64,000 nucleotides of DNA, from the NCBI GenBank assembly GCA_020060775.1, contig JAGUZN010000116.1, forward strand, positions 3,995 through 67,994, written 5' to 3'. Each line of letters opens with the position of its first letter. Position 1 is the first letter of the stretch. The position numbers were made by a program, and so were the translations under genes. Of this stretch, positions 32,650 to 64,000 are shown one piece after another. Under the pieces are notes generated by a model that saw only the letters and a program-made list of their open reading frames with translations, ran no database searches and was not told the DNA's origin. This DNA comes from Armatimonadota bacterium. Its GTDB lineage: Bacteria; Armatimonadota; Hebobacteria; CAIYQO01.

Positions 32650-32662
32650 GGGTCTGCTCCCT

Positions 32663-40238: not shown

Positions 40239-40528
40239 GAGTAATTCCCTCCTACAGTGAGTATCGATTCATTGTTTATCCATACCGCGCTATGGTTAGC
40301 GGTAACGGGATTGAATGATGATATCACAGCTAGTGCAGTTTGACAAGCCGTGCGACAGTTACGTGAGAAACTTCAATGGAACTGTCGCTGAACGCTGCAG
40401 ACGCATCCCCTGTCGTGACAGGGGATGTTCGGCAACAGCACACACTGGGTTACGAAACACGGCGATATTGTCCCTTCACTGTTATAATGGATGGCAGCAG
40501 GAACGGTGTTTGACACCGGGAGAGAATT

Positions 40529-40951
40529 ATGCGTACGGCGGTGATCTACAAATCCGTTTTCCATTCGACAGCGCAGTATGCGCGCTGGTTGGCTGAAGCA
40601 TTGGGGGCCGAATTGCTCGCAATGAACAAGGCGAAAGATCTTGCGCGTTTCGATCGGGTCGTCGTCATGTCCGGCACATATGCGGGTGGAATGCCGCTCG
40701 TCGGGTACTTGAAGAAATACTGGCCACAACTGCAGGGCAAAGAGGTGGTGGTGGTTGCCGTGGGCGCTGCTCCGGCGGATGATCCGGCAAGCCAGTTGAG
40801 CTACGAGAAGATCCCTCCGGAGATTCGCGAGCAGATCACCTACTTCAAGATTCGCGGGGCCACACCGTTTGCCAAGGCAGCCCAGCGCGAACAGGAGGTT
40901 CGTCGCGAACATCTTGCGCCGGTGTTGCAGCACTTGCAACGGGACGAGTAG
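40529..40951 (+). CDS. Flavodoxin-like domain protein
   Basis: MRTAVIYKSVFHSTAQYARWLAEALGAEL...VVVMSGTYAGG. Confidence 0.7.
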   Translation: MRTAVIYKSVFHSTAQYARWLAEALGAELLAMNKAKDLARFDRVVVMSGTYAGGMPLVGYLKKYWPQLQGKEVVVVAVGAAPADDPASQLSYEKIPPEIREQITYFKIRGATPFAKAAQREQEVRREHLAPVLQHLQRDE

Positions 40952-40957
40952 CACAGA

Positions 40958-43411: not shown

Positions 43412-43440
43412 TTGACGGGATGGCTGTGCTCGGCTATAGT
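43412..43440 (+). promoter_or_regulatory. Near-consensus sigma70-like promoter upstream of the giant-gene operon
   Basis: TTGACG (43412-43417), 17-nt spacer, TATAGT (43435-43440). It implies a ~185-nt leader before ATG 43632. Confidence 0.55.
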
Positions 43441-43631
43441 GAACACAGCAACAGTACCTACAGCCAAGTACGCTTTGACCGATTCGGTCGCAGAGCAGCG
43501 TATGCCTCTGGATGCCCCACATGCCTGGGCGTCCCACGCCGGGAACACGGACTGCCCGCGTGCAACCTTCAGCCCCACCTGCGGCAGCAGCCTTCATCTC
43601 TGCCACTTTAGCGTAACAAGAGGGGGGGATT

Positions 43632-46600
43632 ATGATTCGCGTCACGATGCTGTTAGCGCTGTGCGCCCTCGGTGTGTTGGCTCTGGGGCCTATCGCCCGC
43701 GCGGCCGGACAGGATCCGGTGTTCCACCTCTCCTTTGACCAGGGGCTATTGCCTGACGTCGGCCCCGACGCCCCCTGTCAGTGGGCCGCTCAATGGAGCG
43801 CCCAGGCCGCCGAGCCACCCCAGTTCTACAAAGAGGGCCTCACCGGCAGTGCCCTGCTTATCACCGATAATCCTGCCAGCGCCGGCATGGTGGCCATACC
43901 GGCAACCATCACCGATGCGCTAACGGAGCGCGGCACGTTCACCTTCTGGCTGCGCGGCATGCAGCAATGGAATCTCTGGAGCATGGGCGAGGACGCGAAG
44001 GGCGGATGCTATGTCTTCATGGGCGGGGGGATGATCTACAAGTGGAACTGGTATGCCGAGATTGCCCTCTTCGGTCATGGCCCCACTCTCTTCTACCAGC
44101 ATTTTGACCAGTACCAGTGGACGCAACTCGGCGTCACCTGGCAGCGCGAAGGTGACGGCAAGACGCGCAACCGCATTTACCTGAACGGCAAGCTGGTCGG
44201 GGAAGCCTCCGGTGCACTGGATATCCGTAATCTACGCTTTGGCAGCACTCCGCTTGAGCCGGGTGGCCGCCTGTTGATCGACGAATGCACACTCTGGAAC
44301 CGCGTGCTCACCGAGCCGGAGATGAAACGCCTCTACCGCCAGAATGGGCAATGGGCGAATACGCCAATCATCACTGCTTCTCGATTGGCGACCGCGCCAA
44401 CGATCGACGGTAGAATTTCTCCAGCAGAGTGGTCGACCGCTTCCCGCCTCACGGGTCTGCTTGAAGCTGCGACCGGCGAGATCGCCATCGACCAGAGCGC
44501 ATTCTACCTGGGCTACGACGATCGCTTCCTGTACCTGGCGATGATCGGCGAGATGACTGAACTGGCGCGCACCAATCCCGCCGCGGTGATCGAGCGTTTC
44601 CTCCGCGCCGAACAGACCGGACGTAGCGACAAGGTGGCAACCGATGATGTCGTTGAACTGTTGCTGTCGCCGGAATACTGGAAAGCGGATGACCACCGGA
44701 CGCCGGGCGCGTGGAATGAGTACCGGCTATTGGCCAATGCGGCAGGCGGTTACGATGCCCGCGCGTATCGACTCAAGGGGATCGATGCTTCGTGGAAGGT
44801 GAACGGACAAACTGCCAGCACTGTGGGCGCATCCGGTTGGCAGTTCGAGGCGCGCATCCCACTGGATGCCCTGGGCACGAAACCCGCACCGGGAGATCGT
44901 TGGGGCCTGCAACTTGGGCGGCACTGGCAACACCTGAAGCAGCAACGCGACCTGTGGGCATGGGGATCCCGCGCGACCCCCGACCCGGCGATCTCCGCCA
45001 AACGCAGTGAACAGTACGTTAAGCGCGACGTACCCGAACAGCCCGACCTCGTGCAGCGCATGCACCTGCATGCCGCTGTCCCTGCGCCGCATGCCGCCCC
45101 CGGCGTGTTGCGCTTTGCCGGGCCCGAGACGCCGGTCGTACAGGTCGAGCGTATCGGCAACCTCGGTGAACGGCTTATCGATTTTTCCGCTGTCATCACC
45201 AATCCCGCGCCGGCCGAGCAAAAAGTTGCCGTGCGGCTCTACACCGACACGGATGCTCTACAGTATACAGATACCCTCACCCTGCCGCCCAACGGCAGGG
45301 CAGAAGTACACAAACGCCAGGAGATCGCCGACTATGCGACCTCGCGTCTGGTTTTCGAGGTTGCCGATGCCACCGGGATCGTCATCCACCGGACAGTAGC
45401 TCCGGTGTATCTCAAGCAATCGTTCGGCGTTTGGCTTGCCCAGCGCCCGAACTATGAGAACTTCCTGCTGGACCTCGATCTCGGCACGCTCTCCAATGTG
45501 CCGGCGTCAGAGTTGCGCGTCGATGTGCAGCTCACCGATGCTGCAGGCGGGGTCGCCTTTGCGGAAAAGGACCGGCGCGTTTCCTCATACGTGGCGCGTC
45601 TGGAATACCCGGCGAAAGGTATCGCGTGCGGCGATTATGCCCTCGTCGTCGCCATCCGCCATGGCGATGTGGTGCTGGCGCATGAGACGCTCGATTTCAC
45701 CCAACACACGAAAGCGCCCTGGTACGGCAACCGGTATGGCTGCGAGGATATGGACCTGGATGTCGTCCCCTACCCCTGGACGGACATGAAGGTCGATAAG
45801 GAGACGGTGCAGGTGTGGGGACGGGAGTATCGTTTCGGCAAAAGCCTCTTCCCCGAGCAGATCACCACGCTGGAGGCGCCGATGTTGCGCGCCCCGGTGC
45901 GGGTGGTGCTGAATACCCAGGATGGCGAAACACTGGATTCCGCCGTTGTTGAGGCCAAAGGGGAGTGGACGAAATCCCATCGCACGCGGGTGGAAGGCAC
46001 GCGCACGATTACGGGGAATGCATGCTCGCTGACACATGCCTTTTGGGCCGAGTACGATGGCCTGTTGTGGAGTACATTGACACTGGCTCCGCAAGGGAAA
46101 GTCAACGTGGCTTCCATGGCCGTAGAGATTCCGCTGCATCCGGCATTCACTGATGTGATCAAAGCCAGCGCATTGGTCGGCGTGCTGAAACCTGAGGGCT
46201 ATCAGCAGGTGCTCGGTCCGGTTTGGCTGGGCAACGGCGATGGTGGCATCCAGTGGTTGCCCGGCGAGGGGAACCTGCATGTGCGCGACAAGAACGTCAT
46301 ACGCGTCGACGTCACCCCCGAGGGGGCCATGTTGCGCATTGTGCTCATCGACACGCCCACCGAGCTCGATGCGCCCTACACCGTGCAATTCGGTATGAAT
46401 GTGACCCCCGTGCGCCCCAACATCACGCGCACGCCCTTCTTCCGTGCGCGCAGCACCCGTGGCGGCGGTCCCTTCTATCCCAAAGGGCTGGAATCCCTGC
46501 CCGCAGCTGACCCCGGCACCGATTTCTACGGCTATGGATCAAAGGCCGGCAATCTCTACGTATGGACGGCTTCGGTCAGCACCGCCGTCGATGCTGCGGG

Positions 46601-47789
46601 CACCGACGATTTCAAGCGGTATGGCGCGGAGTGGATGAGCGATCCCTTCCAGCGCCCGCAACGCGGGTGGGAAACAGATGTCGTCTTCCCGACCACCTCC
46701 TCCGACAGCTTCCGCGATTACTTCATCTGGCGCTACTGGCGCTACCAGCAGAAGTATGGATATGCCGGGCACTACTGCGACAACCCCGGCGGCGGCTCCA
46801 CGCTGGAGGTGCGTGAACTGCTGAAGCGGCTCTACAACGTGACCTCGAGCAACCTGCATTTCGCCGCCCGCGAGGCCAATATCGGCATCGCCTCCAACGG
46901 TGGATTCAATATGGGGTTCGGCGGATTCTTCACCTACCAATGGGACGGTGAACACCTTAACTCGCACGTCAGTTCACAGCAACCCACCTACCGGGGCATC
47001 CTCAATCCGGGGGCGTACCGTGCCGAATACATGGGGCACAACTACGGTTGGCCGGTTTACTTCCTCGGGCAGGCGCGCATCAAACCGGAATGGGTGCAGG
47101 CCAACGGTGGCCCAGAGGCGGTGATCGATCACGTGCAGGGGTTGGAGCTGCTGCATGATGTACAGCCGAGCGGCTGGCATTTTCCCGGTCCCATGGATCA
47201 GGTCTGCCAGCGGGCGCAAAACGCGGTGAAGGAGCACAACCTGTTCCACTGGATCTACCAGTTCACTCCCTACTGGAAACAGGATATCGTGACCCTGCCC
47301 GACAAGGATATGCACGCCTCCCTCTACATCGCACGGCCATCCAAGCTTGCGTCCACCAACCCGCGCGATGAGATGGGTTACCCATGGGGGCACCGGGCGG
47401 TCACCTTCCGCCATTACTTCAATCAGCACCTGCCGGGCTACATCATCACCCAAAACTTCTACGACACGGAAGCGGCCCGGGATGCGTTCACCCGCATGCC
47501 GGATACAGCGGTGCTGATCGTCTACAACAACACCGAGTGGGAAGGCGAGATGCGCCTGAAGGTCGATTGGCAGAAGCTCGGTCTCGGCGCGCCCGACACT
47601 CTGACAGTGACAAACGCCGTACACAGCACCGGTTTCCGCCTGGAGAAAGGGAACGATGCGGACGGCAAGGAGATCGAGAAAGCCGTCTTCTTCGAACGCC
47701 CTGAAGAGTTCGCAAAGATTGAAAACGGTGAACTGGTTTTCCCAATGACGCAATTCAACTATCGGATGATCGTCATCGGGAAGGAATAA
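43632..47789 (+). CDS. Giant secreted paralog 1 (1385 aa): LamG, CBM9-like domain, Ig-like region and an uncharacterised C-terminal module
   Basis: Signal peptide MIRVTMLLALCALGVLALGPIARAAG. LamG end: RIYLNGKLVG...LIDECTLWNRVLTEPEMKRLY. CBM9-like: APTIDGRISPAEW...DQSAFYLGYDDRFLYLAM...WQFEARIPLDALG..PGDRWGLQLGR. Family motifs: VPYPWTDM..VQVWGREYRFG, GNGDGGIQ, DYFIWRYWRYQQKYGYAGHYCDNP, WDGEHLN, RAEYMGHNYGWPVYFLGQ, C-terminal ENGELVFPMTQFNYRMIVI. Confidence 0.9.
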   Translation: MIRVTMLLALCALGVLALGPIARAAGQDPVFHLSFDQGLLPDVGPDAPCQWAAQWSAQAAEPPQFYKEGLTGSALLITDNPASAGMVAIPATITDALTERGTFTFWLRGMQQWNLWSMGEDAKGGCYVFMGGGMIYKWNWYAEIALFGHGPTLFYQHFDQYQWTQLGVTWQREGDGKTRNRIYLNGKLVGEASGALDIRNLRFGSTPLEPGGRLLIDECTLWNRVLTEPEMKRLYRQNGQWANTPIITASRLATAPTIDGRISPAEWSTASRLTGLLEAATGEIAIDQSAFYLGYDDRFLYLAMIGEMTELARTNPAAVIERFLRAEQTGRSDKVATDDVVELLLSPEYWKADDHRTPGAWNEYRLLANAAGGYDARAYRLKGIDASWKVNGQTASTVGASGWQFEARIPLDALGTKPAPGDRWGLQLGRHWQHLKQQRDLWAWGSRATPDPAISAKRSEQYVKRDVPEQPDLVQRMHLHAAVPAPHAAPGVLRFAGPETPVVQVERIGNLGERLIDFSAVITNPAPAEQKVAVRLYTDTDALQYTDTLTLPPNGRAEVHKRQEIADYATSRLVFEVADATGIVIHRTVAPVYLKQSFGVWLAQRPNYENFLLDLDLGTLSNVPASELRVDVQLTDAAGGVAFAEKDRRVSSYVARLEYPAKGIACGDYALVVAIRHGDVVLAHETLDFTQHTKAPWYGNRYGCEDMDLDVVPYPWTDMKVDKETVQVWGREYRFGKSLFPEQITTLEAPMLRAPVRVVLNTQDGETLDSAVVEAKGEWTKSHRTRVEGTRTITGNACSLTHAFWAEYDGLLWSTLTLAPQGKVNVASMAVEIPLHPAFTDVIKASALVGVLKPEGYQQVLGPVWLGNGDGGIQWLPGEGNLHVRDKNVIRVDVTPEGAMLRIVLIDTPTELDAPYTVQFGMNVTPVRPNITRTPFFRARSTRGGGPFYPKGLESLPAADPGTDFYGYGSKAGNLYVWTASVSTAVDAAGTDDFKRYGAEWMSDPFQRPQRGWETDVVFPTTSSDSFRDYFIWRYWRYQQKYGYAGHYCDNPGGGSTLEVRELLKRLYNVTSSNLHFAAREANIGIASNGGFNMGFGGFFTYQWDGEHLNSHVSSQQPTYRGILNPGAYRAEYMGHNYGWPVYFLGQARIKPEWVQANGGPEAVIDHVQGLELLHDVQPSGWHFPGPMDQVCQRAQNAVKEHNLFHWIYQFTPYWKQDIVTLPDKDMHASLYIARPSKLASTNPRDEMGYPWGHRAVTFRHYFNQHLPGYIITQNFYDTEAARDAFTRMPDTAVLIVYNNTEWEGEMRLKVDWQKLGLGAPDTLTVTNAVHSTGFRLEKGNDADGKEIEKAVFFERPEEFAKIENGELVFPMTQFNYRMIVIGKE

Positions 47790-47866
47790 CGATTGCATGG
47801 TAATGACCGGGCGGACAACACCGGTCAACGCTGTCCTGTGGCGAAACGATGAGGGAGAATACCACA

Positions 47867-50800
47867 ATGCAATGTATCACGGCGTGGTTGTTATGCTCGA
47901 GTCTCCTGGTGGGCGGATTGTTGAGCGCTGCCCCGGCGCACGCCCTGGAGGGCCCGGCACTGCATCTGGCTTTCGAGGAGGGGCTAACGCCGTGGGTGGG
48001 ACAGCAGGACGCGTTTAAGTGGAATTCGCCGCAGCCGCCCGAGTTCGCCGAGGACGGGATTGCCGGCAAGTCCTTGCGTATCACCGGAGCCGGCCAGATG
48101 CTCGGCCTGTTGTTCCCAGAGACAGAGCGCAAGACCGGCACGTTGCTCTTCTGGGTGAAGGAGCCGCAGGGCGACGCGGGCAGTAGGATCATCGGTAGCT
48201 GGGGGCCGGGCTGGTCGGCTGTGACCAGGAACAGCCTGCAGAACAGCGAGATGGAGCAATTTCTCGCCCCTCTCTCATTTCCTGCTTTGGACACACAGTG
48301 GACCCAGTTCGGCATCTCGTGGGACAATGCGCCAAACGACAAGGGCGTGATGAGTGGGCGCGTACGCATCTATCGCAACGGAGTGCGCATACAGGAAGGC
48401 GTCGGCTTTTTTTCCGCCAACAGCATACTACTCGGTTCCCAACACGCTCTTCCCGAAGGCAAGAGCCGTCTGCTCGATGAAGTGCGCCTGTGGAACCGGG
48501 TGCTGACCGATGCTGAAGTTAAACAGTGGTACCATGCCGACTTTCAGGGTCGGACGGAGCCGTTTGTCTCGATCCCCCTCCTCACGCACGCGCCAACCGT
48601 GAACGGCATCATCGATCCGACGGAGTGGGCCGGAGCTGCCCGCATTACAGGGCTGCTGGCTGCACCGAGTGGCGAATTGGCGGTTGATCAGAGTGCCTTT
48701 TTTCTGGGGTATGATGCGGAACATCTGTATGTCGCCATGGCTGGCGACATGACGGAACTGGCGCGCACGCGACCCGCCGCCGTTTTTGAGCGCTTTGTGC
48801 GCGCAGAGCACACCGCCCGCACGAGCCATGTGGAACGCGATGATGTGCTTGAACTCATCCTGTCTCCCAACTATTGGCAGGCGGAAACGCGCGACGAGCC
48901 GGGGAACTGGCGTGAATACCGTCTGCTGGGCAACGCGGTCGGCGGCTATCAAGCGACGACCTATGAAAAGACCAGCGTCGATAACGCCTGGCCTGTCGAG
49001 TGGCAGACAGCAAGCCGTGTGAGCAACGCGGGCTGGCAAATCGAGGCGCGAATCCCATTGGCATCGTTTGGTGCGGCGGCGCCCGAGCCCGGTGCACGCT
49101 GGGGTCTGCAGCTTGGGCGAATCTGGCAACAGCTTAAAGAGACGCACGATGTATGGACATGGGGACATCGCCTGTCGCGGACCCAACCGGCCCCCCAGCG
49201 ATTGCATGTGCATGACGCGCCCGGATTCCCGCCGCTCTCCAATTTCGGGGTGATGCAATTCGCCGACCGCGACGAGGTGGTCGTACGGATCAACCGCATC
49301 GGACAACTTACGGATGGACGCATCGATCTGCAGGCGGAGCTGTTCAATCCCTCGAACACCCAGCACACCGTGACGGTTACGGCCTTTACCGACACCCCCG
49401 ACATCAACCAGAGCGAACCGGTTACGCTGGCTGCCGGCGAACGGAAGGTGGTGAAATTTGCCCGCCAGATCATGGACTTCGCAGCCTCACGCTTCACGTT
49501 TACGGTCGCCAAGCCCGACGGCGCACTCCTCCACCGCACTCAGGTCGGCTTCCACATCGAACAGCGCTTCGAAACCCGGATCGTGCAATACCCCAATTAC
49601 GAGAGGTATCTGGTGGCACTGAACCTGGGGGTGTTCAGTGATGCCCCGCTCGATCAACTGCGCGTGGACATCCGATTCCATAATGAAGCCGGCAAGCAGG
49701 TCGTTGCGAGCGAGGACAACACGATCACGACCTACACGCCGGAACTCACCGGCGCCACTTCGAAGCTTGCCTTCGACCCTCACGTGTTATCCGTCACCAT
49801 CCGGCAGGGCGACAAAGTGCTGGCTGTCGAGAAACACCCATTCACCCGAATCAAAAAGGCGGTATGGTGGAACAACCGGCTTGGCTACGAGGACATGGAT
49901 CATGACATCGTGCCGTACCCCTGGACGGACATGGGCGTAAAAGGCGCGACAGTGCAGGTATGGGGACGGGAATACCGTTTTGGCACGTCGCTGCTCCCCG
50001 AGCAGGTGACGACGCTCGACGACCCCATTTTGCGCAGTCCGATGCGCGTGACCATGAAGATGGCGGATGGGGCGCTGTTCGATTCAACGAAGGTCAAGGC
50101 GACAACCGCATGGACCAAACGGAAGAACACCAGGGTGGAAGGCATCCGGACGGCGGCTGGCAAAGGGTTCTCGCTGAAGAACACGTTCTGGGCGGAATAC
50201 GACGGGCTGGTCTGGTGTACCCTGACACTCGAACCGAAGGGTAAGCTCACCGTCGAACACCTGGAAATCGAAATACCGATCTCACGGCAATTCTCTGATG
50301 TCAGCGCATTTGGTTGGATTGGCAACGGCGACGGCGGTATCCAGATCTACCAGGAAGGGAATACCTTCTATCTGGACAAGCAGGAGCCCGTGCGCGTGGA
50401 ACGCCAGGACGGTGCTGATACCTGGCGCATGACGCTGGTCAACACGCCGACGGAATTCGCCACATCCTATGACATCACCCTGGGATTCATGGCCACGCCC
50501 GGCCGTCCCAAGACCTGGCGCACACCCGAGTATCAGGGATGGGATCGAAGACCCGGCATGTATGGATTCGCCGCCCTCGGAGGAGGGCCGTTCTATCCTG
50601 ACTCGCACACCTTCAAGCCGGGGCCGGACCCTGAAGGGAAGGGGCACGGAGGAACGGGATGTTATGTCTGGACCACCCACGTCAACCTCACGCCCGACGC
50701 CGTCAGCGCCGATGACAGCAAGTATTATGTCGAGTGGTTGATCAATCCCTTCCAGGGCGGTGGAAACCTGACCCAGGGTCTGATTCGTCCTGAAACGTTG

Positions 50801-51913: not shown

Positions 51914-51927
51914 AAGAAGGAGAGCGT

Positions 51928-54312: not shown

Positions 54313-54390
54313 CTTGCGATGAAGTCGGCATCAGCGTACTCCATCTAAATCCGTGATGTATCTAAAAATCACCCAGTAAAGAGGGCAGGC

Positions 54391-57300: not shown

Positions 57301-58407
57301 GCCGGCAGCGGCCGGGTGGTGATGGATCTGCATTCCAAGAGTTTTCGCGAATATTTCGTCTGGCGCTTCTGGCGTTACCAGCAGAAGTATGGGTTCGCCG
57401 GCCTGTACTTCGACAACCCCGACCGCGAGGGGCTTGCCACGCGCGAGGTCATCAAGCGCATGAATAATATCGCGCTGGGTAACACCAAGTTTCACCCCTG
57501 GGCGCAACCAATCGGCGGCGCCACCAACGGCTTTGTCGACATGCGCTACATGTCTTTCTGGCAATACCACTGGGACGGCGAGCACCTGAACGGTGCAATC
57601 CAGCAATGGCACACCTACATCGGCCACATCAATCCAGCGAGTTACCGCAAGGAATATATGGGACACAACCTCGGCTGGCCGGTGATGTTTCTCGGTCAGG
57701 GGCGCATCACGCGGGAATGGGTGGAGGCCAATGGCGGGGCCGAGGCGGTGTTTGATCAAATCTACGGCCTGAACCTGCTGCATGACGGCGGCAATGTCTG
57801 CTGCATCTTGCCGGGCGACGTCACCCGCCAACTGCAACTCCGCCGCCAGGAAGACGTGAAAGCGCTCAGCTTGCATCACTGGGCCTACCAGTTCCTCCCC
57901 TACTGGCGGCAGGATATCGTCACACTGCCGCGCGAAGGGTTGTATGCCTCGCTGTATATCGGGCATCCCACGGCACTGGCCCGTGCCGATGCCAACACGA
58001 TCGACGCCTACTTCGAGCGCTACCAGCCCCGGCAGTTGCCGGAGGTGCTGCGAACGCTCAATCGCCAGAAGGTGGAGCACGCTCGCGACGAACTCGCCGC
58101 GATGCCGGATAAAGCCTTCCTGGTTGTCTACAACGACAGCGACTGGCAGGGAGAGGTTCGCCTGAAAGTGGATTGGCAACAGCTTGGATTGGGCGCGCCT
58201 GACACTCTGCAGGTCACCAACGCCCTGCACCGCACCGGCTTCCGCGTGGAGAAGGCCCGGGATAAGGACGGCAAAGAGGTCGAGAAAGGGGTCTACTTCG
58301 AACGAACCGAAGAGTTCGCGAAAATCGAAAACGGCGAATTGGTCTTTCCGATGACTAAACACAACTACCGGTTGATTGTCATCGAACAACGCCCCGCACA
58401 GGAGTGA
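54391..58407 (+). CDS. Giant secreted paralog 3 (1338 aa), same architecture
   Basis: LFDNVRMWDRVLTDAEVKRVY; TPNLDGKIAPEEW...DQSAFLFGYDTTHLYIAL...WQLEARIPLDALG..PGDRWGLQLAR; VQVWGREYRFG; EYFVWRFWRYQQKYGFAGLYFDNP; ENGELVFPMTKHNYRLIVI. Confidence 0.9.
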   Translation: MMSARHKHSVKSYSVLLCVWLISLYLYGALGWPAHAEADIPKPVLFLSFEQGLKPDIGPEGELQWSGRKPPQPPQYVEQGVQGKALCITEDNFNLGFTIPDRERPRGTLLLWIKEPQGPTGSRFISSWGPGWTGVNRDMLQTSVLLGGVRYPAWGTQWTQIGISWQNAGDSGRVRIYLNGKRVQEVTGFFSTQRLLIGADFMPEGHSRLFDNVRMWDRVLTDAEVKRVYRQDFRETNQPIVSAPRLRQTPNLDGKIAPEEWTGAARITGMLDAELGEVAADQSAFLFGYDTTHLYIALHGEMTELARTNPALVYEKFLRAEGKGNDGKVTDDDAVEIVLAPEFWRVESHRESGAWKEYRVLANAVGGHYAQSYAQHAAPSAWNVPWQSASAAGPHGWQLEARIPLDALGVPPPQPGDRWGLQLARIWKQLKDTTDLWAWGLRTPDDAPQRLHLHQHAATPMTNLGALRFAGDDEVVVRVERIGRLRDGQLDFQATLYNPSAGEQQVTLRLVTDTGDCAYEESLTLPAGKQGRYSRRQQLTDYAASGLTFEVVLPDGTLIHRTAVGFHRTQQFGMRTVAYPNYDRFLVELDLGIFADIPADELRIDLNMRNAAGKTVLLKTDQRASAYLVHSMQSMKSIAVGNYTLTAAIRRGSTVLAKEEQPFVKHAKAAWWGQRYGFDDVDQDKVPYPWTDMQVARDTVQVWGREYRFGKNLLPEQITSLDAPMLRAPVRLLVKTASGDVLDTAQTGAQSSWTSKKHTRVEGVRSVEAPFLSVKNVVWAEYDGLLWCTLTVTPRKKVDIDSLVVEVPLNRAFSDVHILGGGYWIGNGDGGVQVFQEDNTFFVDDKNPVRVDTEDGLATWRMVLIDKPTELTAPYTITLGMMATPVRPKVWRTAAFDERSVQGGGPWFPQGLEFMPAADPGVDYYSGAHGGRLYVHTEIKPTPHITTDAEGTTDWDRYGYEWVRDPGYRYAGSGRVVMDLHSKSFREYFVWRFWRYQQKYGFAGLYFDNPDREGLATREVIKRMNNIALGNTKFHPWAQPIGGATNGFVDMRYMSFWQYHWDGEHLNGAIQQWHTYIGHINPASYRKEYMGHNLGWPVMFLGQGRITREWVEANGGAEAVFDQIYGLNLLHDGGNVCCILPGDVTRQLQLRRQEDVKALSLHHWAYQFLPYWRQDIVTLPREGLYASLYIGHPTALARADANTIDAYFERYQPRQLPEVLRTLNRQKVEHARDELAAMPDKAFLVVYNDSDWQGEVRLKVDWQQLGLGAPDTLQVTNALHRTGFRVEKARDKDGKEVEKGVYFERTEEFAKIENGELVFPMTKHNYRLIVIEQRPAQE

Positions 58408-58463
58408 CCCTACGCCCCGCACGACAATAGCATCTAACACCGGAACGAGAAGGAGAATGATCG

Positions 58464-61400
58464 ATGTTCAAGTACATCCTGCCCGCGCTACTGAGCCTGA
58501 GCGCGTGCATCCTCATGCCGGCACTGGCCAACGAGGCGAAGTCGGCATCGCGACGCACCTATGAATCCGGCGACCTTGGTAAACGCATCGCCGTGGTGAA
58601 GATGAAGTCACCGCCCACCATTGACGGCATCATGGAGCCGGGGGAGTGGGAGAACGCGACCAGGATCACCGGCCTGACGGAAGCTGGTGTCATATTCCAG
58701 GCCGGCGTACACGGTTGCGTCTGTGTCATAGACCACCCCACACTGGGCCGCTTGAAGAATATCGCCACCAATCAATCGGCATTCTGGGTGAGCTATGATG
58801 ATGAGTATTTATATGTTGCGCATTTGAGTCCGCCGCCGGCCGGCATTCGCGATAACCCGGCGATGATCCAGGTGATGCTCAAGAGGGCGCAAACATTACA
58901 TGACGCCAACATCGATCAGGATGACAGCATCAGTATCGAGATCATGTCGCCAGTCTATCCGGACGGTGACAACTACATCATCCAGGTCAATTCGATCGGC
59001 ACCACCTTCGACTGCATCTGGGGCGGCGCCAAGGGGAAAATGCCGGGCATCACCGTCGGCTGGGAGCCCGAAGTCATCAACAAGTCGACGCTGACGCTGG
59101 ACGGCTGGATCATCGAAACGGCCATTCCCTGGAAAGACTTTGGACCACACATAGAAAAACCCGCACCGGGCACGGTGCTGCCGATGAACTTTGGCCGCAT
59201 CTGGCGGGAGGTGACCAACGAATTTCATGCCTGGCAGGCCTTCGACGGCTTTCGCCCCAAGGGTGATGTCCTGTTCTGCGGCGATGAGGGCGTCGTCGTG
59301 CAATTGAATGACGCCGGCAATCTGCCGCGCGGGCAGGCGAAGTTTGATGCCAATCTGAAGAACCTTTCCGCGACGGAGGCCAGGGTGATTGCCGAGGTGT
59401 CGACCGACTCCGGCGACCTCAACGACCGCAAGGAACTGCTCCTGCCTCCCAATCAATCCGTGCCCTATCTGTTCACCGGCAGGATTACCGATCTGGCCAC
59501 CACGACCATCGCCTTGACCATCAAAGAGGCGACCGGCGGCACGATTATCCATCAGACCGTCCTGCCGGTCATTCGTAAAACCGCTCCGGATATCTACACG
59601 CGCAGATACCGCAGCCGGGAACTCGTCAAGTTCGAAGTGGATATGGGCTTCATCGGATCGGCAGACCCGGCGAAAACCAGCATCAAATTGAGCATCACCG
59701 ATAACAAGAACGGGAAGCGGATCGTGAACAAGACGTTTAAGGGATTTGACTCCTACGATCCGGTCCTCGAACTCTCCTCCGAAGGGTGGGCACCGGCGGA
59801 TTACACCGCCAAGTTCGTCTTCACGGCCCCGGGCATGAAGGCCTACGAGGCGAGCATCCCCTACAAGCACCCGCAACTTCCCGAATGGTGGAACAACCGG
59901 TATGGCCTTGAAGATCTGGATTACGACCGGGTTCCCTTCCCCTGGACGAATGTCGAAGTCAAAGATGATGCAATCCAGGTGTGGGGGAGGAGCTACCAGT
60001 TCAGCGAGGCCTTCCTGCCCAAACAGATCACCACGCTGGACTTCCCGATACTGCGTGGGCCGGCGCGCCTGGTAATAGAAACGGCTGACGGCAAGGTGCT
60101 GGACACCGCGTCGGCAACGGTGGAGAAGCAGTGGACCAGCACCCGGCGTACGCGTGTGGAAGGCGAGCGCACGATCGCGGCAGATGGCTTCGCCTTGCGC
60201 AACGCGCTGTGGGCGGAGTACGACGGCTTGCTCTGGAATACGCTCGAGTTAAAGCCGGACAAGACGATCACCGTGAAGTCCATGGAACTGATCATCCCGT
60301 TAACCCGCGAGTTCACCGACGTGATGAACAACATGGATTACTCGCTACGCACCACCGGCAAGCTGAAGCCCGAGGGATTTGTTGCGCCGGCGGCACGACC
60401 GCTCTGGCTCGGTAATGGAGACGGCGGCATCCAGATCGCAGCGAAAGAAGACAATCAGTACTTTGTGCAGGACATCAAAAAGACCATGCATGTGGACATG
60501 AGCGCTGACGGCGCCATCCTGCGCATGGTGCTGGTCGATGTGCCCACGGAATTCACCGCTCCATACTCCGTGCAGATCGGCTTGATCGCCACCCCGGTGC
60601 GCCCCAAGCTCACGCGCACGCCCTTCTTCCGACAAAGCAGCCTGGTGGGCGGCGGGGCCTGGTATCCGCAAGGCATGGAGTTCGTGGCAGCAGCGGATCC
60701 CGGTTTCGATCCATATGGCTACGGGACGAAGGCCGGCAGAATTTACGTGCATACCGCGCCGGTGAACGTATCGCCGGAATCAATGAAAATGGACGCCGCC
60801 GGTGCGGAGGATTATCTCTTCGCTGACGAGATCCGCGCCAATCCCTCCGACCGCAGCCTTGACCGCATTAACACCGATTACGAGTCCAAAGTGGCGCGCG
60901 ACTACTTCGTCTGGCGGCATTGGCGCTACCAGAATAAATACGGGTTCAAGGGCCTGTACTATGACGGCACCGGCGGCGTGATCCTCGGCTTGCGCGATCT
61001 CATGCGCCGGCTGTACAACATCACCCTGATCAACCAGCCGTACGGCGCACGCGAGGCGAACGTCGGCATTCACTCGTCGGCGATGTTCAATATGGCGGCC
61101 TATGCCTTCGGTACGTACAACTGGGATGCCGAAAACTACAATTCGATTATCAACGAAACCCAGCAGACGTATCGCGGCGAGGTGGACCCGGCGAGATTTC
61201 GTGCCGAGCACTTGGGGCACAACTTCGGGTGGCCGCTCTACTTCCTCGGCCAGGGGCGCATCAAGCGCGAGTGGGTGGAGGCCAACGGCGGCCCAGAAGC
61301 GGTGTTTGACCAGATCTATGGATTGAACCTGCTGCATGACGGCGGCGGCGTCTGCTGCATCCTGCCCACCCCCATGCGCGATCTGGAAGTTCGGCGTGCC

Positions 61401-61964
61401 GGCGATGTGAAAGCCCTTGGCCTGCACCACTGGATCTACCAGTTCACCCCCTACTGGCATCAGGACATCGTCGCGTTGCCACATGAAAATATGCACGCGT
61501 CGTTCTATATCGCCCGGCCTTCGAAACTTGCCGCAACCGATCCCAACGACAGGTCGGGAGAAGGCCATCGGGTACGAACGTTCACAGGCTACTTTGACAA
61601 ACACCTGCCTTGGTATATCAAAGTGGCCAATATAAACGAAACCGAAGACGCCAGGGCCGAGTTCACTGGGATGAAAGACCGCATCATCATGGTCGTCTAC
61701 AACGATACGGCCTGGGAAGGCGAGATGCGCCTGAAGGTGGATTGGCAGAAGCTCGGGCTGGGCACACCCGACACCTTGACGGCCACCAATGCGTTGCATC
61801 GCACTGGCTTCCGCGTGGAGAAGGTGAAAGACAAGGATGGCAAAGAGGTGGAGAAAGCGGTGTTCTTCGAGCGCCCGGAGGAGTATGCCCGCATCGAGAA
61901 TGGCGAACTGCTCTTCCCCATGACGCCATACAACTATCGCCTGATCGTCATCGAGCAGCGGTAG
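58464..61964 (+). CDS. Giant secreted paralog 4 (1166 aa), lacking the N-terminal LamG domain
   Basis: The signal peptide MFKYILPALLSLSACILMPALA is followed directly by the CBM9-like domain (PPTIDGIMEPGEW...NQSAFWVSYDDEYLYVAHL...WIIETAIPWKDFG). Then IQVWGRSYQF, DYFVWRHWRYQNKYGFKGLYYDG and ENGELLFPMTPYNYRLIVI. Confidence 0.9.
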   Translation: MFKYILPALLSLSACILMPALANEAKSASRRTYESGDLGKRIAVVKMKSPPTIDGIMEPGEWENATRITGLTEAGVIFQAGVHGCVCVIDHPTLGRLKNIATNQSAFWVSYDDEYLYVAHLSPPPAGIRDNPAMIQVMLKRAQTLHDANIDQDDSISIEIMSPVYPDGDNYIIQVNSIGTTFDCIWGGAKGKMPGITVGWEPEVINKSTLTLDGWIIETAIPWKDFGPHIEKPAPGTVLPMNFGRIWREVTNEFHAWQAFDGFRPKGDVLFCGDEGVVVQLNDAGNLPRGQAKFDANLKNLSATEARVIAEVSTDSGDLNDRKELLLPPNQSVPYLFTGRITDLATTTIALTIKEATGGTIIHQTVLPVIRKTAPDIYTRRYRSRELVKFEVDMGFIGSADPAKTSIKLSITDNKNGKRIVNKTFKGFDSYDPVLELSSEGWAPADYTAKFVFTAPGMKAYEASIPYKHPQLPEWWNNRYGLEDLDYDRVPFPWTNVEVKDDAIQVWGRSYQFSEAFLPKQITTLDFPILRGPARLVIETADGKVLDTASATVEKQWTSTRRTRVEGERTIAADGFALRNALWAEYDGLLWNTLELKPDKTITVKSMELIIPLTREFTDVMNNMDYSLRTTGKLKPEGFVAPAARPLWLGNGDGGIQIAAKEDNQYFVQDIKKTMHVDMSADGAILRMVLVDVPTEFTAPYSVQIGLIATPVRPKLTRTPFFRQSSLVGGGAWYPQGMEFVAAADPGFDPYGYGTKAGRIYVHTAPVNVSPESMKMDAAGAEDYLFADEIRANPSDRSLDRINTDYESKVARDYFVWRHWRYQNKYGFKGLYYDGTGGVILGLRDLMRRLYNITLINQPYGAREANVGIHSSAMFNMAAYAFGTYNWDAENYNSIINETQQTYRGEVDPARFRAEHLGHNFGWPLYFLGQGRIKREWVEANGGPEAVFDQIYGLNLLHDGGGVCCILPTPMRDLEVRRAGDVKALGLHHWIYQFTPYWHQDIVALPHENMHASFYIARPSKLAATDPNDRSGEGHRVRTFTGYFDKHLPWYIKVANINETEDARAEFTGMKDRIIMVVYNDTAWEGEMRLKVDWQKLGLGTPDTLTATNALHRTGFRVEKVKDKDGKEVEKAVFFERPEEYARIENGELLFPMTPYNYRLIVIEQR

Positions 61965-62099
61965 GGACATTACCGTGCCGGCCGATTTCATCCGGGGACG
62001 GAACGGATGCTTCCTCGGGTGAAATCGGTCTGTATCGGATGGGCCGCTGGCTAAATATTCGAAGATCGATATGGCGTCTGACGTGAGTGGAGATACACG

Positions 62100-63836
62100 A
62101 TGAAGCGAAAGCATTACCTGGTGCTAAGTGCGTTCAGCATCTTATGCTTGTGGACCGCTGCGGTGAACGCTGCGCCTGCAACAATTACCATCTCGGATCC
62201 AGCGCCGGCCGATGAGGGGATGATCGGGTCGCTGAATCCAACGCTGTCGGTCACCGTGCGCCATAGCGCGCGCAAGCGCATGACCATTACGTTCAGTTCC
62301 GATGCCTCCGGCCAGCGAAAGGAGATCTCCCGCTTCACCCAAGCCTCCTCTGGCGTGTACACCGTGCGGCCAAGAACGATGACACGACGGGGGATGACTT
62401 ACCATTGGACAGTTACGGCGACCGACGGCAAAGTCACCGCGACCCGGACGTTCAGCATCAATATTGCCCAGTTTATCGGCACGCGCGACACGCTCATCAC
62501 CCACTCAGATTGCTGGAAATACGGCTACATCAAGCATGGGTGGGAGAAAGGTAAATTCTTCGTCACGACGCAACGCGGAACCTGGGCGGCCTATGACCTG
62601 GATAAGGGATGGTATCGTACCTACCAACGCCTGCTGCGACGTCAGGAGTATACCGGGGCATGGCGAAGCCTGGAAGACGGCGGTAATCTGGGGCATCCGT
62701 TCTGGGGCTACTGGGACGGGCAGTACCATGCGCTGGGTGCCTTCAGACACGGCTCATCCGGATGGGAATCCGCATCCAGCAGAACCTTCGAAGGCCTTGC
62801 ACAACTCCGCTACGAAACCGACGTCAAAGACCTTGGCCTGCGCACGCAACAGCCGAATTGGCATGAAGGAGTCACCTATACCTTTAGTGAGGATCGGGCG
62901 TGGATCATTGCGCTCGATTTTGACGCGACGCAATCGCCACGGGATGCGGATACAAGTTGGGTCCACCACAAAGGCCGTGGTGTCGTGAAGTATTGGCAGT
63001 GGACGAAAGCTGGCGGGTGGGAGAAACCCGTCACCATCGGCACGGTGTCCAATCACACCGGCCGTGTTGCCCTGGTACGTCATACCCGTGACCTCTGGTA
63101 CTTATTTGTGACGGAGGGCGAACACGGCAGCCTGGATGGCAAAGGTAATGCCAACTTCACATCCACACTGAAATATTTCAAATCCACCGATGCCGGGGCT
63201 ACCTGGAGCGATCTGCACGACACCGGTGTCCCCGCACACGCCATATGGAGCAGTGTGTCCTTCGCGCGGTATGGCGATAATTACTATGTGTTCCTCTCGG
63301 CCGGCAACGACTCGTACGTACAGTTTACGACGAACCTCGAGGAGTGGGTCACCGACGGTGTCAACCGCAAGCGCGTCGCCAGAGATGCGTGGATGAAGCC
63401 ACACGGCACGTTGCTGCATCAAAGCGCGTTAATCATGACGGTTGCCGCCGATTTGGACTATCTCGACGAACAGTATGGCATCATTATCGTGGTGCCGGAA
63501 ATGATCGCGCACCCCGAACCACCGACCGGTCCGCTGCCCGTAGCCGGCGCTCAATTACCGGCAGGCGTGAATGAAGCGGAACTCTCCGTGACAGTGCATG
63601 GGCCGCAAACCTACGATGTCGCATTCTACTGGGAGGACGGCACGTTCATCGGTGAGGATAAATTGCTGCGCGAGGGCGAACGGGCGCGGGTAACCGTTGC
63701 CAACCTCACACCGGGAAAGACATACACCTGGTATGCGGTCGCTCGTGGGGCGCTGCTGGAATACTACGGCTGCGAACCGGATACCACCAGCGACGAACAG
63801 TGGTCGGAGGCGAGTAGCTTTCGAACGTCAAAATGA
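62100..63836 (+). CDS. Secreted BNR/Asp-box (sialidase-fold-like) beta-propeller protein flanked by Ig/FN3-like domains
   Basis: Signal peptide MKRKHYLVLSAFSILCLWTAAVNA. One clear Asp-box, FKSTDAGATWSD. N- and C-terminal beta-sandwich-like segments are present (...YHWTVTATDG..., ...TYTWYAVARG...). Confidence 0.6.
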   Translation: MKRKHYLVLSAFSILCLWTAAVNAAPATITISDPAPADEGMIGSLNPTLSVTVRHSARKRMTITFSSDASGQRKEISRFTQASSGVYTVRPRTMTRRGMTYHWTVTATDGKVTATRTFSINIAQFIGTRDTLITHSDCWKYGYIKHGWEKGKFFVTTQRGTWAAYDLDKGWYRTYQRLLRRQEYTGAWRSLEDGGNLGHPFWGYWDGQYHALGAFRHGSSGWESASSRTFEGLAQLRYETDVKDLGLRTQQPNWHEGVTYTFSEDRAWIIALDFDATQSPRDADTSWVHHKGRGVVKYWQWTKAGGWEKPVTIGTVSNHTGRVALVRHTRDLWYLFVTEGEHGSLDGKGNANFTSTLKYFKSTDAGATWSDLHDTGVPAHAIWSSVSFARYGDNYYVFLSAGNDSYVQFTTNLEEWVTDGVNRKRVARDAWMKPHGTLLHQSALIMTVAADLDYLDEQYGIIIVVPEMIAHPEPPTGPLPVAGAQLPAGVNEAELSVTVHGPQTYDVAFYWEDGTFIGEDKLLREGERARVTVANLTPGKTYTWYAVARGALLEYYGCEPDTTSDEQWSEASSFRTSK

Positions 63837-63909: not shown

Positions 63910-64000
63910 ATGCTGGTGCACCTTACTAGGAAAAATGTTTGGAGATGTCTCATCTCCATTGCGGTAGTTATGTTGTGTTGCACGTCATCTCTCTCCACGG
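63910..64000 (+). CDS. 5' end of a further secreted/membrane protein gene (truncated by the window)
   Basis: ATG 63910 opens a frame to the window end: MLVHLTRKNVWRCLISIAVVMLCCTSSLST, which is signal-peptide-like. Only 30 codons are visible. Confidence 0.3.
   Translation, partial: MLVHLTRKNVWRCLISIAVVMLCCTSSLST

Follow-up and report, generated by a model that had tools for sequence, protein, structure and literature searches.

What do four giant secreted proteins encoded side by side do, and can the module that they share at their C termini be assigned to an enzyme type already described? The question is raised by the window analyzed here, a 64,000-nucleotide stretch from an Armatimonadota bacterium. 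As the first-pass annotation had reported, six plus-strand open reading frames (g1 to g6) lie in tandem at the coordinates listed below, with gaps of 14 to 135 nt (in order, 59, or 77 if g2 starts at 47867, then 14, 78, 56, and 135 nt).

40958..43231, minus strand: histidine kinase with four PAS domains, divergently oriented
43412..43440, plus strand: sigma-70-like match TTGACG-N17-TATAGT (10/12), in the 400-nt gap preceding g1
43632..47789, plus strand: g1, 1385 aa; signal peptide, LamG, CBM9-like, Ig-like, and DUF6067 module (beta-supersandwich, barrel, and C-terminal sandwich, as predicted)
47849..51913, plus strand: g2, 1354 aa from the first ATG; architecture as g1
51928..54312, plus strand: g3, 794 aa; GH139 family
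54391..58407, plus strand: g4, 1338 aa from the first ATG; architecture as g1
58464..61964, plus strand: g5, 1166 aa; short form without LamG
62100..63836, plus strand: g6, 578 aa; secreted, no family match
63910..64000, plus strand: seventh open reading frame, beginning MLVHLTRKNVWRCLISIAVVMLCCTSS...; signal-like N terminus, continues past the window edge

The seventh frame means that the row does not end at 63836, as had been supposed. For g2, a start at 47867 (1348 aa), with GAGGGAG upstream, is likelier than the first ATG. The public gene call for g4 begins 23 codons further in, giving 1315 aa, and P0027 is 100% identical to g4 across those 1315 aa. Signal-peptide-like N termini, already noted for the paralogs, were found by eye on all six genes, as were upstream Shine-Dalgarno-like motifs. 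No terminator-like sites occur on the plus strand within the intergenic gaps and, together with the short gaps and the ribosome-binding motifs, this makes it plausible that the six genes form an operon and would be cotranscribed. The promoter-like site proposed for it is indeed present at 43412 to 43440 but carries no statistical weight, as 4 sites of this kind were observed in the region versus 6.9 +/- 2.6 expected by chance. The leader ahead of g1 has no Rfam match and a structure that is not unusual. It is possible that the PAS histidine kinase regulates the row.

The products of g1, g2, g4, and g5 are clear paralogs, as had been stated, with 45 to 50% identity to g1 in a MAFFT alignment and pairwise identities of 35 to 50% by BLASTP. 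A "fourfold tandem expansion," if meant as a recent local event, does not fit the data. The nearest relative of each paralog sits in another genome, at 52 to 67% identity versus 35 to 50% within the window (53% for g1, in a Planctomycetia metagenome-assembled genome [MAG], L013; 67% for g2, P0028; 60% for g5, in a Victivallaceae MAG, L004), and DNA identity between the four copies is 61 to 81%. Both observations indicate that the paralogs diverged anciently and are not recent local copies. Tandem sets of DUF6067 genes are also found in MAGs of the PVC group, which includes Planctomycetes, Verrucomicrobia, Lentisphaerae, and Kiritimatiellae.

The domain map of the paralogs is most easily read from g5, the short form. 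All features below are on the plus strand.

58581..59273, plus strand: CBM9-like domain, residues 40-270 (AF2 model, Foldseek match to 4jpq, PF06452 in relatives)
59292..59873, plus strand: two Ig-like beta-sandwiches, residues 277-470 (AF2 model; most variable region)
59931..60599, plus strand: beta-supersandwich, residues 490-712 (PF19543 match, AF2, Foldseek)
60741..61667, plus strand: predicted (beta/alpha)8-type barrel, residues 760-1068 (AF2; first strands poorly modeled)
60963..60965, plus strand: candidate catalytic Asp, D834, last residue of a barrel strand
61131..61133, plus strand: candidate acid/base Glu, E890, two residues past the second strand downstream
61680..61958, plus strand: C-terminal beta-sandwich, residues 1073-1165 (AF2, conservation)
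46779-46781 (g1 D1050), 50882-50884 (g2 D1012), 57412-57414 (g4 D1008), plus strand: equivalents of D834
46950-46952 (g1 E1107), 51083-51085 (g2 E1079), 57580-57582 (g4 E1064), plus strand: equivalents of E890

Much of the first-pass domain assignment was borne out. The LamG domain of g1, g2, and g4 is supported by Pfam Laminin_G_3 scores of 21.9, 27.9, and 29.6 bits, respectively (cut-off, 27.6), and by profile matches to LamG-type PDB domains at 1e-15. The CBM9-like domain is supported by PF06452 matches in relatives and by a Foldseek match to 4jpq (TMt, 0.65). The Ig-like stretch, called variable, is the region of greatest variation (20 to 45% identity), and the C-terminal beta-sandwich is the best-conserved domain (63 to 77% identity among the four paralogs). 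The C-terminal module is common to all four, at roughly 700 aa instead of the ~650 aa first given. Its seven proposed motif blocks occur in loosened versions in all four paralogs, but read literally, only the last block fits all four. The first reading of a same-strand cluster of secreted, multimodular, carbohydrate-related proteins was right.

The guess that the module is DUF6067-like also proved correct. PF19543, the former DUF6067 under its present name "GH123_N" (InterPro IPR045711), scored above the gathering cut-off in all four paralogs (37.7 bits in g1; cut-off, 22) and in 45/45 diverse relatives; the family comprises 2538 clusters at 50% identity (E<=1e-3). Full-length relatives at 41 to 60% identity bear the NCBI name "DUF6067 family protein," and typical ones are ~1300 aa long with the same module at the C terminus, as in the window. 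The Pfam model covers only the supersandwich part (about 308 to 521 of 969) in the paralogs and 10 other members; in g5 this is the sole part matched, at profile positions 326 to 521 of 969. PF19543 is a catalogue entry for which no characterized function, assay, or structure was found. Literature searches under DUF6067 and DUF5703 returned no paper, and the sole mention of PF19543/IPR045711 was a database table. The first reading was also right that the module could not be placed in a characterized enzyme family; a 119-sequence profile of the module matched no PDB sequence (E<=10).

In an AF2 model of the module alone (pLDDT, 83.6; pTM, 0.86), a beta-supersandwich is followed by a (beta/alpha)8 barrel and then by a C-terminal beta-sandwich. 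Barrel strands 1 to 3 are of low confidence (pLDDT, 36 to 64), which makes strand numbering insecure. The best Foldseek matches in the PDB align across ~800 columns and belong to GH97 (5e1q at 1.9e-12, 3a24, 5xfm), GH36 (8x1b and 9ayu at about 1e-10, TM 0.36 to 0.39; 3mi6), and GH31 (MYORG). Matches of ~300 columns to LacZ, GH38, and GH94 chains were taken, given their length, as supersandwich matches. TM-scores to GH97, GH36, and GH31 are low (0.2 to 0.39) and rmsd is high, and so the modeled module resembles these families in domain order and fold without superposing closely. Enzymes such as BT1871 (5e1q/3a24), FpGalNase (9ayu/8x1b), and MYORG (7qqh) have the predicted domain order and, like the module, an Asp closing one strand with the acid group two strands on. 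They differ in showing no sequence, profile, or Pfam similarity to the module (hhalign against a 12-sequence GH36 alignment gave a probability of 0.04%, no signal) and in lacking the N-terminal LamG, CBM9-like, and Ig modules. In addition, the putative acid/base of the module is Glu, whereas in GH27, GH31, and GH36 it is Asp.

A family-wide Pfam scan, counted by member and not by position, gave cross-matches to DUF6259 (6 members; best, 5e-7), GHL6 (3 members; best, 1.9e-6), and GH66, Melibiase_C, and Malt_amylase_C (1 to 3 members each), all under the gathering score wherever a cut-off was given. Weak matches to Melibiase_C, Malt_amylase_C, and GLGE_C in relatives are in keeping with the C-terminal sandwich. 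Two matches span the equivalent of D834: one to DUF6259 in P0174 (1.8e-4, with a weak GHL10 match beside it) and one to GH29 Alpha_L_fucos in P0145 (1.5e-4). GH29 enzymes have a (beta/alpha)8-like barrel in which Asp serves as the nucleophile and Glu as the acid/base; the match is confined to this one relative, is below cut-off (21.8 versus 25.2 bits), and is absent from the window proteins themselves.

Conservation points to a candidate active site. Five strands in succession carry family-conserved residues at, or just beyond, their C-terminal ends: D834, H870, E890, Q/E930, and Y997-W998. Across relatives sharing just 21 to 35% identity, the D834 position is Asp in 123/125, E890 is Glu in 124/125, R849 is kept in 125/125, and H958 in 120/125. 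All four paralogs keep E585, D587, D834, R844, R849, E890, H958, D959, Y997, and W998; E585 and D587 belong to a near-invariant E585-x-D587-G588 turn within the supersandwich. The offset of 56 residues from D834 to E890 in g5 resembles the nucleophile-to-acid/base spacing in GH27, GH31, and GH36. D834 and E890 would fit a retaining Asp/Glu glycosidase. The paralogs also depart from the family at otherwise near-invariant positions: residue 870, His in 114/125 relatives, is Ala in g1, g2, and g4, and g5 lacks W790 and G889 (W790I, G889A). These differences suggest that specificities probably differ among the four and that some copies may be inactive or binding-only.

The first-pass annotation had also sensed a GH123/DUF4091 flavor, and a divergent GH123-type beta-N-acetylgalactosaminidase using substrate-assisted catalysis is what the Pfam/InterPro name implies; a 2026 annotation resource takes PF19543 as a GH123 signature. 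GH123 enzymes and the DUF4091 groups share that label and, broadly, a domain order that runs from an N-terminal beta-sandwich through a (beta/alpha)8 barrel to a C-terminal domain (PMC11087588), and the family-invariant Asp closes a barrel strand like the GH123 Asp. However, every test was negative, and we rejected this relationship, which we regard as very improbable. The residue after the Asp is Glu in only 2/125 relatives and 0/4 paralogs, confirming the D-N or D-G noticed earlier, whereas the DE motif is retained in 94% of DUF4091 proteins (PMC11087588). At E<=1, neither the window proteins nor the 45 relatives scanned matched PF13320 (DUF4091/GH123_cat). Solved GH123 structures exist in the PDB (PMC11087588), yet none was matched by the 119-sequence module profile at E<=10 or appeared among the top 50 Foldseek matches of either model. 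With hhalign, 11 beta-NGA sequences (groups 1 to 4 of PMC11087588, without any founding GH123 enzyme and cut at about 400 residues) gave a probability of 0.13%. The predicted architecture is nearest GH97, GH36, and GH31. The missing Glu is no sign of inactivity, judging from conservation, as another near-invariant Glu, E890, lies two strands on.

The same barrel might instead support other chemistry, as a metal-site inverting hydrolase like inverting GH97, a transglycosylase, an alpha-glucan-lyase-like enzyme, or an esterase. GH97, which supplies the best Foldseek matches, includes retaining as well as inverting enzymes and binds Ca2+ through several Glu; conserved acidic residues are many in the DUF6067 family, including the E-x-D-G turn, and one relative matches GH66, which includes transglycosylases. 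We consider this doubtful, since a metal site is not directly supported and a single Asp and a single Glu at strand ends is the simplest reading. Somewhat less probable still is that the four proteins are noncatalytic, with a barrel that is a degenerate enzyme fold, and serve as adhesins or glycan-binding proteins, secreted or at the cell surface, that capture polysaccharide for other enzymes. Each carries several lectin/CBM-type modules (LamG, CBM9-like, Ig), the C-terminal sandwich is better conserved than the barrel, the substitutions at 870, 790, and 889 could be read this way, and a GH139 homologue without its catalytic acid has been proposed as a binding protein (PMC12282258), so that such degeneration occurs in these bacteria. 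Set against this, the near-invariant charged strand-end residues D834, E890, R849, and H958 are typical of an active site, and the Asp and Glu are kept in all four paralogs.

The interpretation we favor, to which we give about an even chance, is a secreted glycan-processing cluster in which the DUF6067 modules are retaining glycoside hydrolases acting beside a GH139 enzyme. The LamG (in three paralogs), CBM9-like, and two Ig-like domains would form a sugar-binding part joined to a catalytic-type module with the domain order of the GH97, GH36, and GH31 alpha-glycosidases. D834 of g5, at a barrel strand end, would be the nucleophile and E890, two strands later, the acid/base, a mechanism distinct from the substrate-assisted Asp-Glu of GH123. 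The four paralogs, probably of different specificity, would act with the GH139 enzyme (2-O-methyl-alpha-L-fucosidase type) on a complex polysaccharide possibly bearing fucose or galactose-type sugars. The paralogs probably cleave sugars, as enzymes of a previously unassayed kind.

The GH139 partner is g3. Its description as GH95/DUF5703-like was right as to domains (DUF5703_N at 6e-67 and a GH95-like [alpha/alpha]6 domain) but missed that it belongs to the characterized family GH139, with matches to PDB 9HMB (4e-126) and 9HYQ (BT0984, a 2-O-methyl-alpha-L-fucosidase; 3e-95). The catalytic base and acid are intact: g3 keeps the Q/N pair (Q373/N374, with N374 as the base) and the acid Glu (E548), along with the -1 subsite Trp and D723 (in g3, W669 and D707), and differs from BT0984 in having Cys713 at the place of N729. 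Bacteroidota are the source of >90% of GH139 sequences (PMC12282258). The homologue from Verrucomicrobium, to which g3 is nearer, has an open pocket and no Trp triad, and so the substrate of g3 need not be rhamnogalacturonan II.

Gene partners of the DUF6067 paralogs are not fixed between genomes. GH139 and a g6 homologue recur once each across 26 related loci; genes found in related loci include GH36, GH39, GH29, GH139, sulfatase, rhamnogalacturonase-like proteins, and LacI regulators. The "BNR propeller" proposed for g6 found no profile support: its sequence has one Asp-box (STDAGATW, residue 362), no Pfam BNR match at a threshold as loose as E<=10, and no match in the PDB, and the C-terminal end gives weak, sub-threshold fn3/Ig-type Pfam matches. 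In L005, the g6 homologue (65% identical) is flanked on both sides by DUF6067 genes.

ORF calling recovered six genes on the plus strand (g1 to g6) exactly where the first-pass annotation had placed them, together with the start of a seventh:

43632-47789, plus strand: g1, large paralog, 1385 aa
47849-51913, plus strand: g2, large paralog, 1354 aa, or 1348 aa from a start at 47867
51928-54312, plus strand: g3, 794 aa, GTG start
54391-58407, plus strand: g4, large paralog, 1338 aa
58464-61964, plus strand: g5, large paralog, 1166 aa
62100-63836, plus strand: g6, 578 aa
63910-64000, plus strand: seventh ORF, continuing past the window end, with a Shine-Dalgarno-like motif and a signal- or lipoprotein-like N terminus (MLVHLTRKNVWRCLISIAVVMLCCTSS...)

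The gaps between g1 and g6 are 14 to 135 nt, and a site scan of the region found no plus-strand terminator-like sites within them. Read by eye, a purine-rich Shine-Dalgarno-like motif precedes each of the six starts (GAGGGAG for the g2 start at 47867), and a signal-peptide-like segment opens every product, in line with the signal peptides originally described. Short gaps, ribosome-binding motifs, and gaps free of plus-strand terminator-like sites are indirect signs that g1 to g6 may form an operon with a single transcript. The array had been taken to end at 63836; as the seventh ORF starts 73 nt after g6, it is longer than that. The public gene call for g4 (P0027, 1315 aa) uses a TTG start at 54460, 23 codons downstream of 54391. 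That start would cost g4 most of its signal peptide, and the ATG at 54391, with AGAGGG upstream, looks like the better one.

The proposed promoter, TTGACG-N17-TATAGT, is present at 43412-43440, but such sites are not more frequent than expected by chance (4 in the region versus 6.9 ± 2.6 in shuffles), so it can be regarded as a candidate only. The 190-nt leader matched no Rfam family, and folding revealed no unusual structure. A four-PAS histidine kinase gene (40958-43231, minus strand) is divergent from g1. After it comes an ORF of 193 aa (40373-40954, minus strand) that matched nothing in Pfam, and no response regulator was seen adjoining the kinase.

The products of g1, g2, g4, and g5 are clear paralogs, as had been proposed, with 35 to 50% pairwise identity. 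All four score 35.7 to 44.2 bits against PF19543, for which the Pfam gathering cutoff is 22 bits, and all 45 relatives scanned also exceed the cutoff. PF19543, formerly DUF6067, now bears the name "GH123_N", and relatives at 41 to 60% identity are called "DUF6067 family protein" by NCBI; none of the six proteins matched an NCBIfam model. When a profile of the four C-terminal modules (~700 aa) was searched exhaustively, E<=1e-3 yielded 2538 clusters (50% identity level) and E<=1e-30 yielded 167; many are ~1300 aa long with the module at the C terminus. By these sequence criteria, the window paralogs are members of a large, catalogued, uncharacterized family. The earlier description of the cluster as an uncharacterized secreted glycan-processing system is borne out. 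Name searches for DUF6067, DUF5703, and GH123-like proteins found no relevant paper, and PF19543/IPR045711 had a single mention in the literature, in a database-construction table that uses PF19543 as a GH123 signature.

AlphaFold2 (AF2) models of g5 were built from input alignments of 21 sequences, further homologue searches having brought no extra module relatives. The full-length model had a pLDDT of 78.8, and the C-terminal module alone reached a pLDDT of 83.6 and a pTM of 0.86. Together with the signal peptide, the models predict the following architecture (g5 residue numbers, used throughout):

1-23: signal peptide
40-270: CBM9-like sandwich (AF2 model)
277-470: two Ig-like sandwiches (AF2 model)
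490-712: beta-supersandwich (AF2 model)
728-761: disordered loop (AF2 model)
760-1068: alpha/beta barrel (AF2 model)
1073-1165: C-terminal beta-sandwich (AF2 model)

The N-terminal LamG domain reported for g1, g2, and g4 is supported by Pfam Laminin_G_3 and by LamG-type PDB domains matched by profile at 1e-15, and the CBM9-like domain by PF06452 matches in relatives and a Foldseek match to 4jpq. PF19543 itself covers only the supersandwich (profile positions ~308 to 521 of 969), as it does in ten other members. The seven motif blocks described for the C-terminal module are all present, and loosened patterns fit all four paralogs; only the last block is literal in all four. In a 125-sequence alignment, 17 residues near-invariant in the family and spread over the whole C-terminal module are kept in every paralog, namely, W475, P493, R509, E585, D587, G655, P711, Y832, D834, R844, R849, E890, H958, D959, Y997, W998, and N1080.

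The best-conserved domain among the paralogs is the C-terminal beta-sandwich (plus strand; g1, 47515-47783; g2, 51639-51907; g4, 58121-58389; g5, 61680-61958), at 63 to 77% identity versus 41 to 53% for the barrel. The g5 sandwich is 77% identical to that of g4 and 73% to that of g1, versus 68% to that of its nearest orthologue (P0002). DNA identity among the copies is only 70 to 78%, which rules out recent gene conversion. It is possible that this domain has a shared partner or sorting role.

The first-pass annotation had sensed a GH123/DUF4091-like flavor in the module. The GH123/DUF4091 group is defined by an N-terminal sandwich, a (beta/alpha)8 barrel, a DUF4091 region, and an adjacent Asp-Glu pair that is kept in 94% of DUF4091 proteins (PMC11087588). 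Whereas this catalytic pair closes barrel strand 4 in GH123, the corresponding position reads D-N in g1, g2, and g4 and D-G in g5, just as first read. Across 125 diverse relatives, the equivalent of D834 is Asp in 123, and the residue after it is V, G, N, C, L, or S, with Glu in only 2. PF13320 (DUF4091/GH123_cat) was absent from the g5 module at E<=10 and from 45 relatives at E<=1. At E<=10, a 119-sequence profile matched the module to none of the PDB chains, although the PDB does contain GH123 structures, and no GH123 structure appeared among the 50 best Foldseek matches of either g5 model. Finally, hhalign against eleven beta-NGA sequences (groups 1 to 4 from the supplement of PMC11087588, cut at ~400 aa to span the N-domain and DE motif) gave a probability of 0.13%. 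GH123 membership found no support on any of these counts: the Asp-Glu pair, PF13320, sequence, profile, and top-50 structure comparisons. The GH123 label is therefore unsupported by any defining feature tested and should be dropped.

A different resemblance emerged at the level of fold. Foldseek searches with the full-length model gave diffuse multidomain matches (LacZ first, at a TM-score of ~0.13), and so the module-only model was used instead. Over ~800 columns, it matched GH97 (5e1q at 1.9e-12, 3a24, and 5xfm), GH36 (8x1b and 9ayu at ~1e-10 with TM-scores of 0.36 to 0.39, and also 3mi6), and the GH31 protein MYORG. In all of these GH97, GH36, and GH31 structures, the supersandwich comes first, then the barrel, and last the C-terminal sandwich. 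The predicted module appears to share this succession (beta-supersandwich, then (beta/alpha)8 barrel, then C-terminal beta-sandwich) with the clan GH-D/GH97 type. The TM-scores of these matches are low (0.2 to 0.39), so the likeness is one of fold and domain order rather than a close match. LacZ, GH38, and GH94 chains matched over only ~300 columns, a length from which we read them as supersandwich matches.

Sequence comparisons did not confirm this likeness. PDB searches with 4- and 119-sequence profiles returned the LamG and CBM9-like parts and nothing for the C-terminal module. No match to the Melibiase, GH31, or GH97 catalytic-domain Pfam families was found. In hhalign, the module alignment (125 sequences) showed no signal with an alignment of 12 GH36 sequences drawn from a metagenome scan (probability, 0.04%), nor was anything found against a single GH36 sequence. 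The forced alignment with GH36 matched D834 to the Asp of the GH36 "RLDYN" motif but set the acid/base of GH36 against the H870 strand, and was not used. The 45 relatives did contain weak, mostly subthreshold Pfam cross-matches: DUF6259 in 6 (best, 5e-7), GHL6 in 3 (best, 1.9e-6), and GH66, GH29, Melibiase_C (2 relatives), Malt_amylase_C, and GLGE_C in 1 to 3 each. The two cross-matches that were located both cover the strand with the D834 equivalent, one being GH29 in P0145 (1.5e-4) and the other DUF6259 (1.8e-4) with a weak GHL10 match in P0174. The possibility, raised at the outset, that the module belongs to an already characterized family found no support from sequence searches, the PDB included, and the Foldseek result is a low-TM likeness at the fold level.

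In the AF2 model, five barrel strands in succession have family-conserved residues at or just past their C-terminal ends:

D834: kept in 123/125; last residue of strand 830-834
H870: kept in 114/125; last residue of strand 866-870
E890: kept in 124/125; two residues past strand 885-888
Q/E930: kept in 111/125 (Q in 69, E in 42); after strand 925-928
Y997-W998: kept in 124/125; after strand 992-995

Such a pattern, as modeled, is typical of TIM-barrel active sites. Aligning the paralogs for invariant acids, as the first-pass annotation had advised, returned D834 and E890 in all four. D834 closes one strand; E890 comes 56 residues later, past the second strand downstream. The strand numbering is tentative because strands 1 to 3 are poorly modeled (pLDDT, 36 to 64). 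In clan GH-D/GH97-type enzymes, an Asp nucleophile stands at the end of strand 4 and the acid/base at the end of strand 6, and in GH27, GH31, GH36, and GH29 the Asp nucleophile is likewise followed two strands on by the acid/base, in a retaining double-displacement mechanism. By analogy with these families, we infer that the C-terminal module may be a retaining double-displacement glycosidase, in which D834 would be the nucleophile and E890 the acid/base. The Glu missing after D834 is better explained in this way, because a separate conserved Glu exists at E890. The supersandwich also has an almost invariant turn, E585-x-D587-G588. Since the N-domains of GH31 and GH97 supply loops to the active site, one could speculate that this turn does the same. 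The paralogs differ at some of the conserved positions: H870 and S872 are replaced by Ala and Asn in g1, g2, and g4, and W790 and G889 by Ile and Ala in g5. These differences suggest that the copies have different specificities or that some may have lost activity.

The partner genes fared differently. The g3 product matched 9hmb_A (4.3e-126) and 9hyq_A (3.3e-95), each in three stretches across residues 36 to 786. The two solved GH139 structures are those of the 2-O-methyl-alpha-L-fucosidase BT0984 and an inactive Verrucomicrobium homologue (PMC12282258). The "GH95-like" label first given to g3 is therefore replaced by GH139, with homology to BT0984 or SDT91673.1 over its full length; the first-pass description of the cluster is largely correct, with this one partner already in a characterized family. 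Functional residues of BT0984 compare with g3 as follows:

g3 Q373/N374, BT0984 Q411/N412: helper and catalytic base, kept
g3 E548, BT0984 E561: catalytic acid, kept
g3 W669, BT0984 W683: -1 subsite stacking, kept
g3 D707, BT0984 D723: activates base, kept
g3 C713, BT0984 N729: not kept

Given that the catalytic residues are kept, g3 is probably an active GH139 enzyme from outside the Bacteroidota, which hold >90% of the family (PMC12282258); this makes it one of few such examples. Within GH139, a Trp triad marks binders of rhamnogalacturonan II (RG-II) chain B (PMC12282258). For g6, we found no Pfam, NCBIfam, or PDB match, with Pfam BNR and the PDB searched at E<=10. Its sequence holds a single S-x-D-x-G-x-x-W motif (residue 362), and with one Asp-box and no BNR or sialidase profile match, the BNR propeller originally assigned to it can be regarded as a candidate fold only.

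Related loci numbered 26 in a scan of species-representative genomes. All are in metagenome-assembled genomes (MAGs), often several per genome, from Victivallaceae/Lentisphaerae, Kiritimatiellae, Planctomycetia, Thermoguttaceae, Phycisphaerae, Verrucomicrobia, "Omnitrophota," Armatimonadetes, and a few others. Tandem DUF6067 genes occur in loci L001 (four), L002 to L004 (three each), and L005, L007, L011, L012, and L023 (two each), and L017 has two such genes 6 kb apart. A g1-type gene and a g5-type gene (long, then short) also lie next to each other in a Victivallaceae MAG. Each window paralog is closer to a relative elsewhere than to any copy in the window: g1 to one in a Planctomycetia MAG (L013, 53%), g2 to P0028 (67%), g4 to one at L010 (52%), and g5 to one in a Victivallaceae MAG (L004, 60%). 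DNA identity between copies is 61 to 81%, without near-identical tracts. Recent duplication or gene conversion is ruled out by the DNA values, and the fourfold tandem set first described is therefore old and maintained rather than newly expanded.

The partners are less constant. Among the 26 loci, homologues of g3 (L015, 47%) and g6 (L005, 65%, flanked by two DUF6067 genes) each recur once. Other neighbors include LacI regulators, DUF1559, URO-D, rhamnogalacturonase-like, DegT, AP_endonuc_2, GH29, GH36, and GH39 proteins and a sulfatase. Because the neighbors vary, the partners are not fixed, and we rejected a fixed multigene "system." In L005 (2676-11419), from a MAG labeled Omnitrophota, the order is DUF6067, g6-like, DUF6067; so high an identity (65%) between nominal phyla points to horizontal transfer or misbinning.

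The public protein collection searched contains ~2500 DUF6067 clusters at 50% identity. Genomes of uncultured Planctomycetes, Verrucomicrobia, Kiritimatiellae, and Lentisphaerae (the PVC group), which are known for complex polysaccharide breakdown, carry the family in multiple copies. Databases give DUF6067 a GH123 name, and one annotation pipeline already counts it as GH123. If that label is wrong, metagenomic surveys would overcount beta-N-acetylgalactosaminidases and miss a separate enzyme family. The family itself is already catalogued and unstudied; what is new here is the argued mislabeling and a concrete, testable catalytic pair (D834/E890), for which g5, at 1166 aa, is a compact target. 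A wider picture is tentative, and we think it rather unlikely to hold in every part: DUF6067 may be an undescribed glycoside hydrolase family, large, PVC-concentrated, mislabeled GH123, and kin to GH97, GH36, GH31, and GH29 only at the fold level. Its retaining pair would be an Asp on strand 4 and a Glu on strand 6, helped by the acidic supersandwich loop. Its tandem old paralogs would form a secreted multispecificity toolkit kept by PVC bacteria, acting here with GH139 on a methyl-fucose-bearing polysaccharide other than RG-II.

Elsewhere, the window has DUF1559/N-methyl proteins, a LacI regulator, and a DegT and AP_endonuc_2 pair, gene content consistent with a PVC-type genome. This DegT-type aminotransferase and AP_endonuc_2 protein (a xylose-isomerase-like TIM barrel) lie ~10 kb upstream (31825-33961, minus strand), and DegT or AP_endonuc_2 genes are also near DUF6067 genes in L001 (2269-3075), L002 (1619-2761), and L006 (12911-14032), a loose but recurring association. 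Two ORFs, of 955 aa (16249-19116, plus strand) and 870 aa (29192-31804, minus strand), had no Pfam match at E<=0.001, and 19187-21058 (minus strand) encodes a full-length DUF4914 protein (1022 bits), a member of another uncharacterized family.
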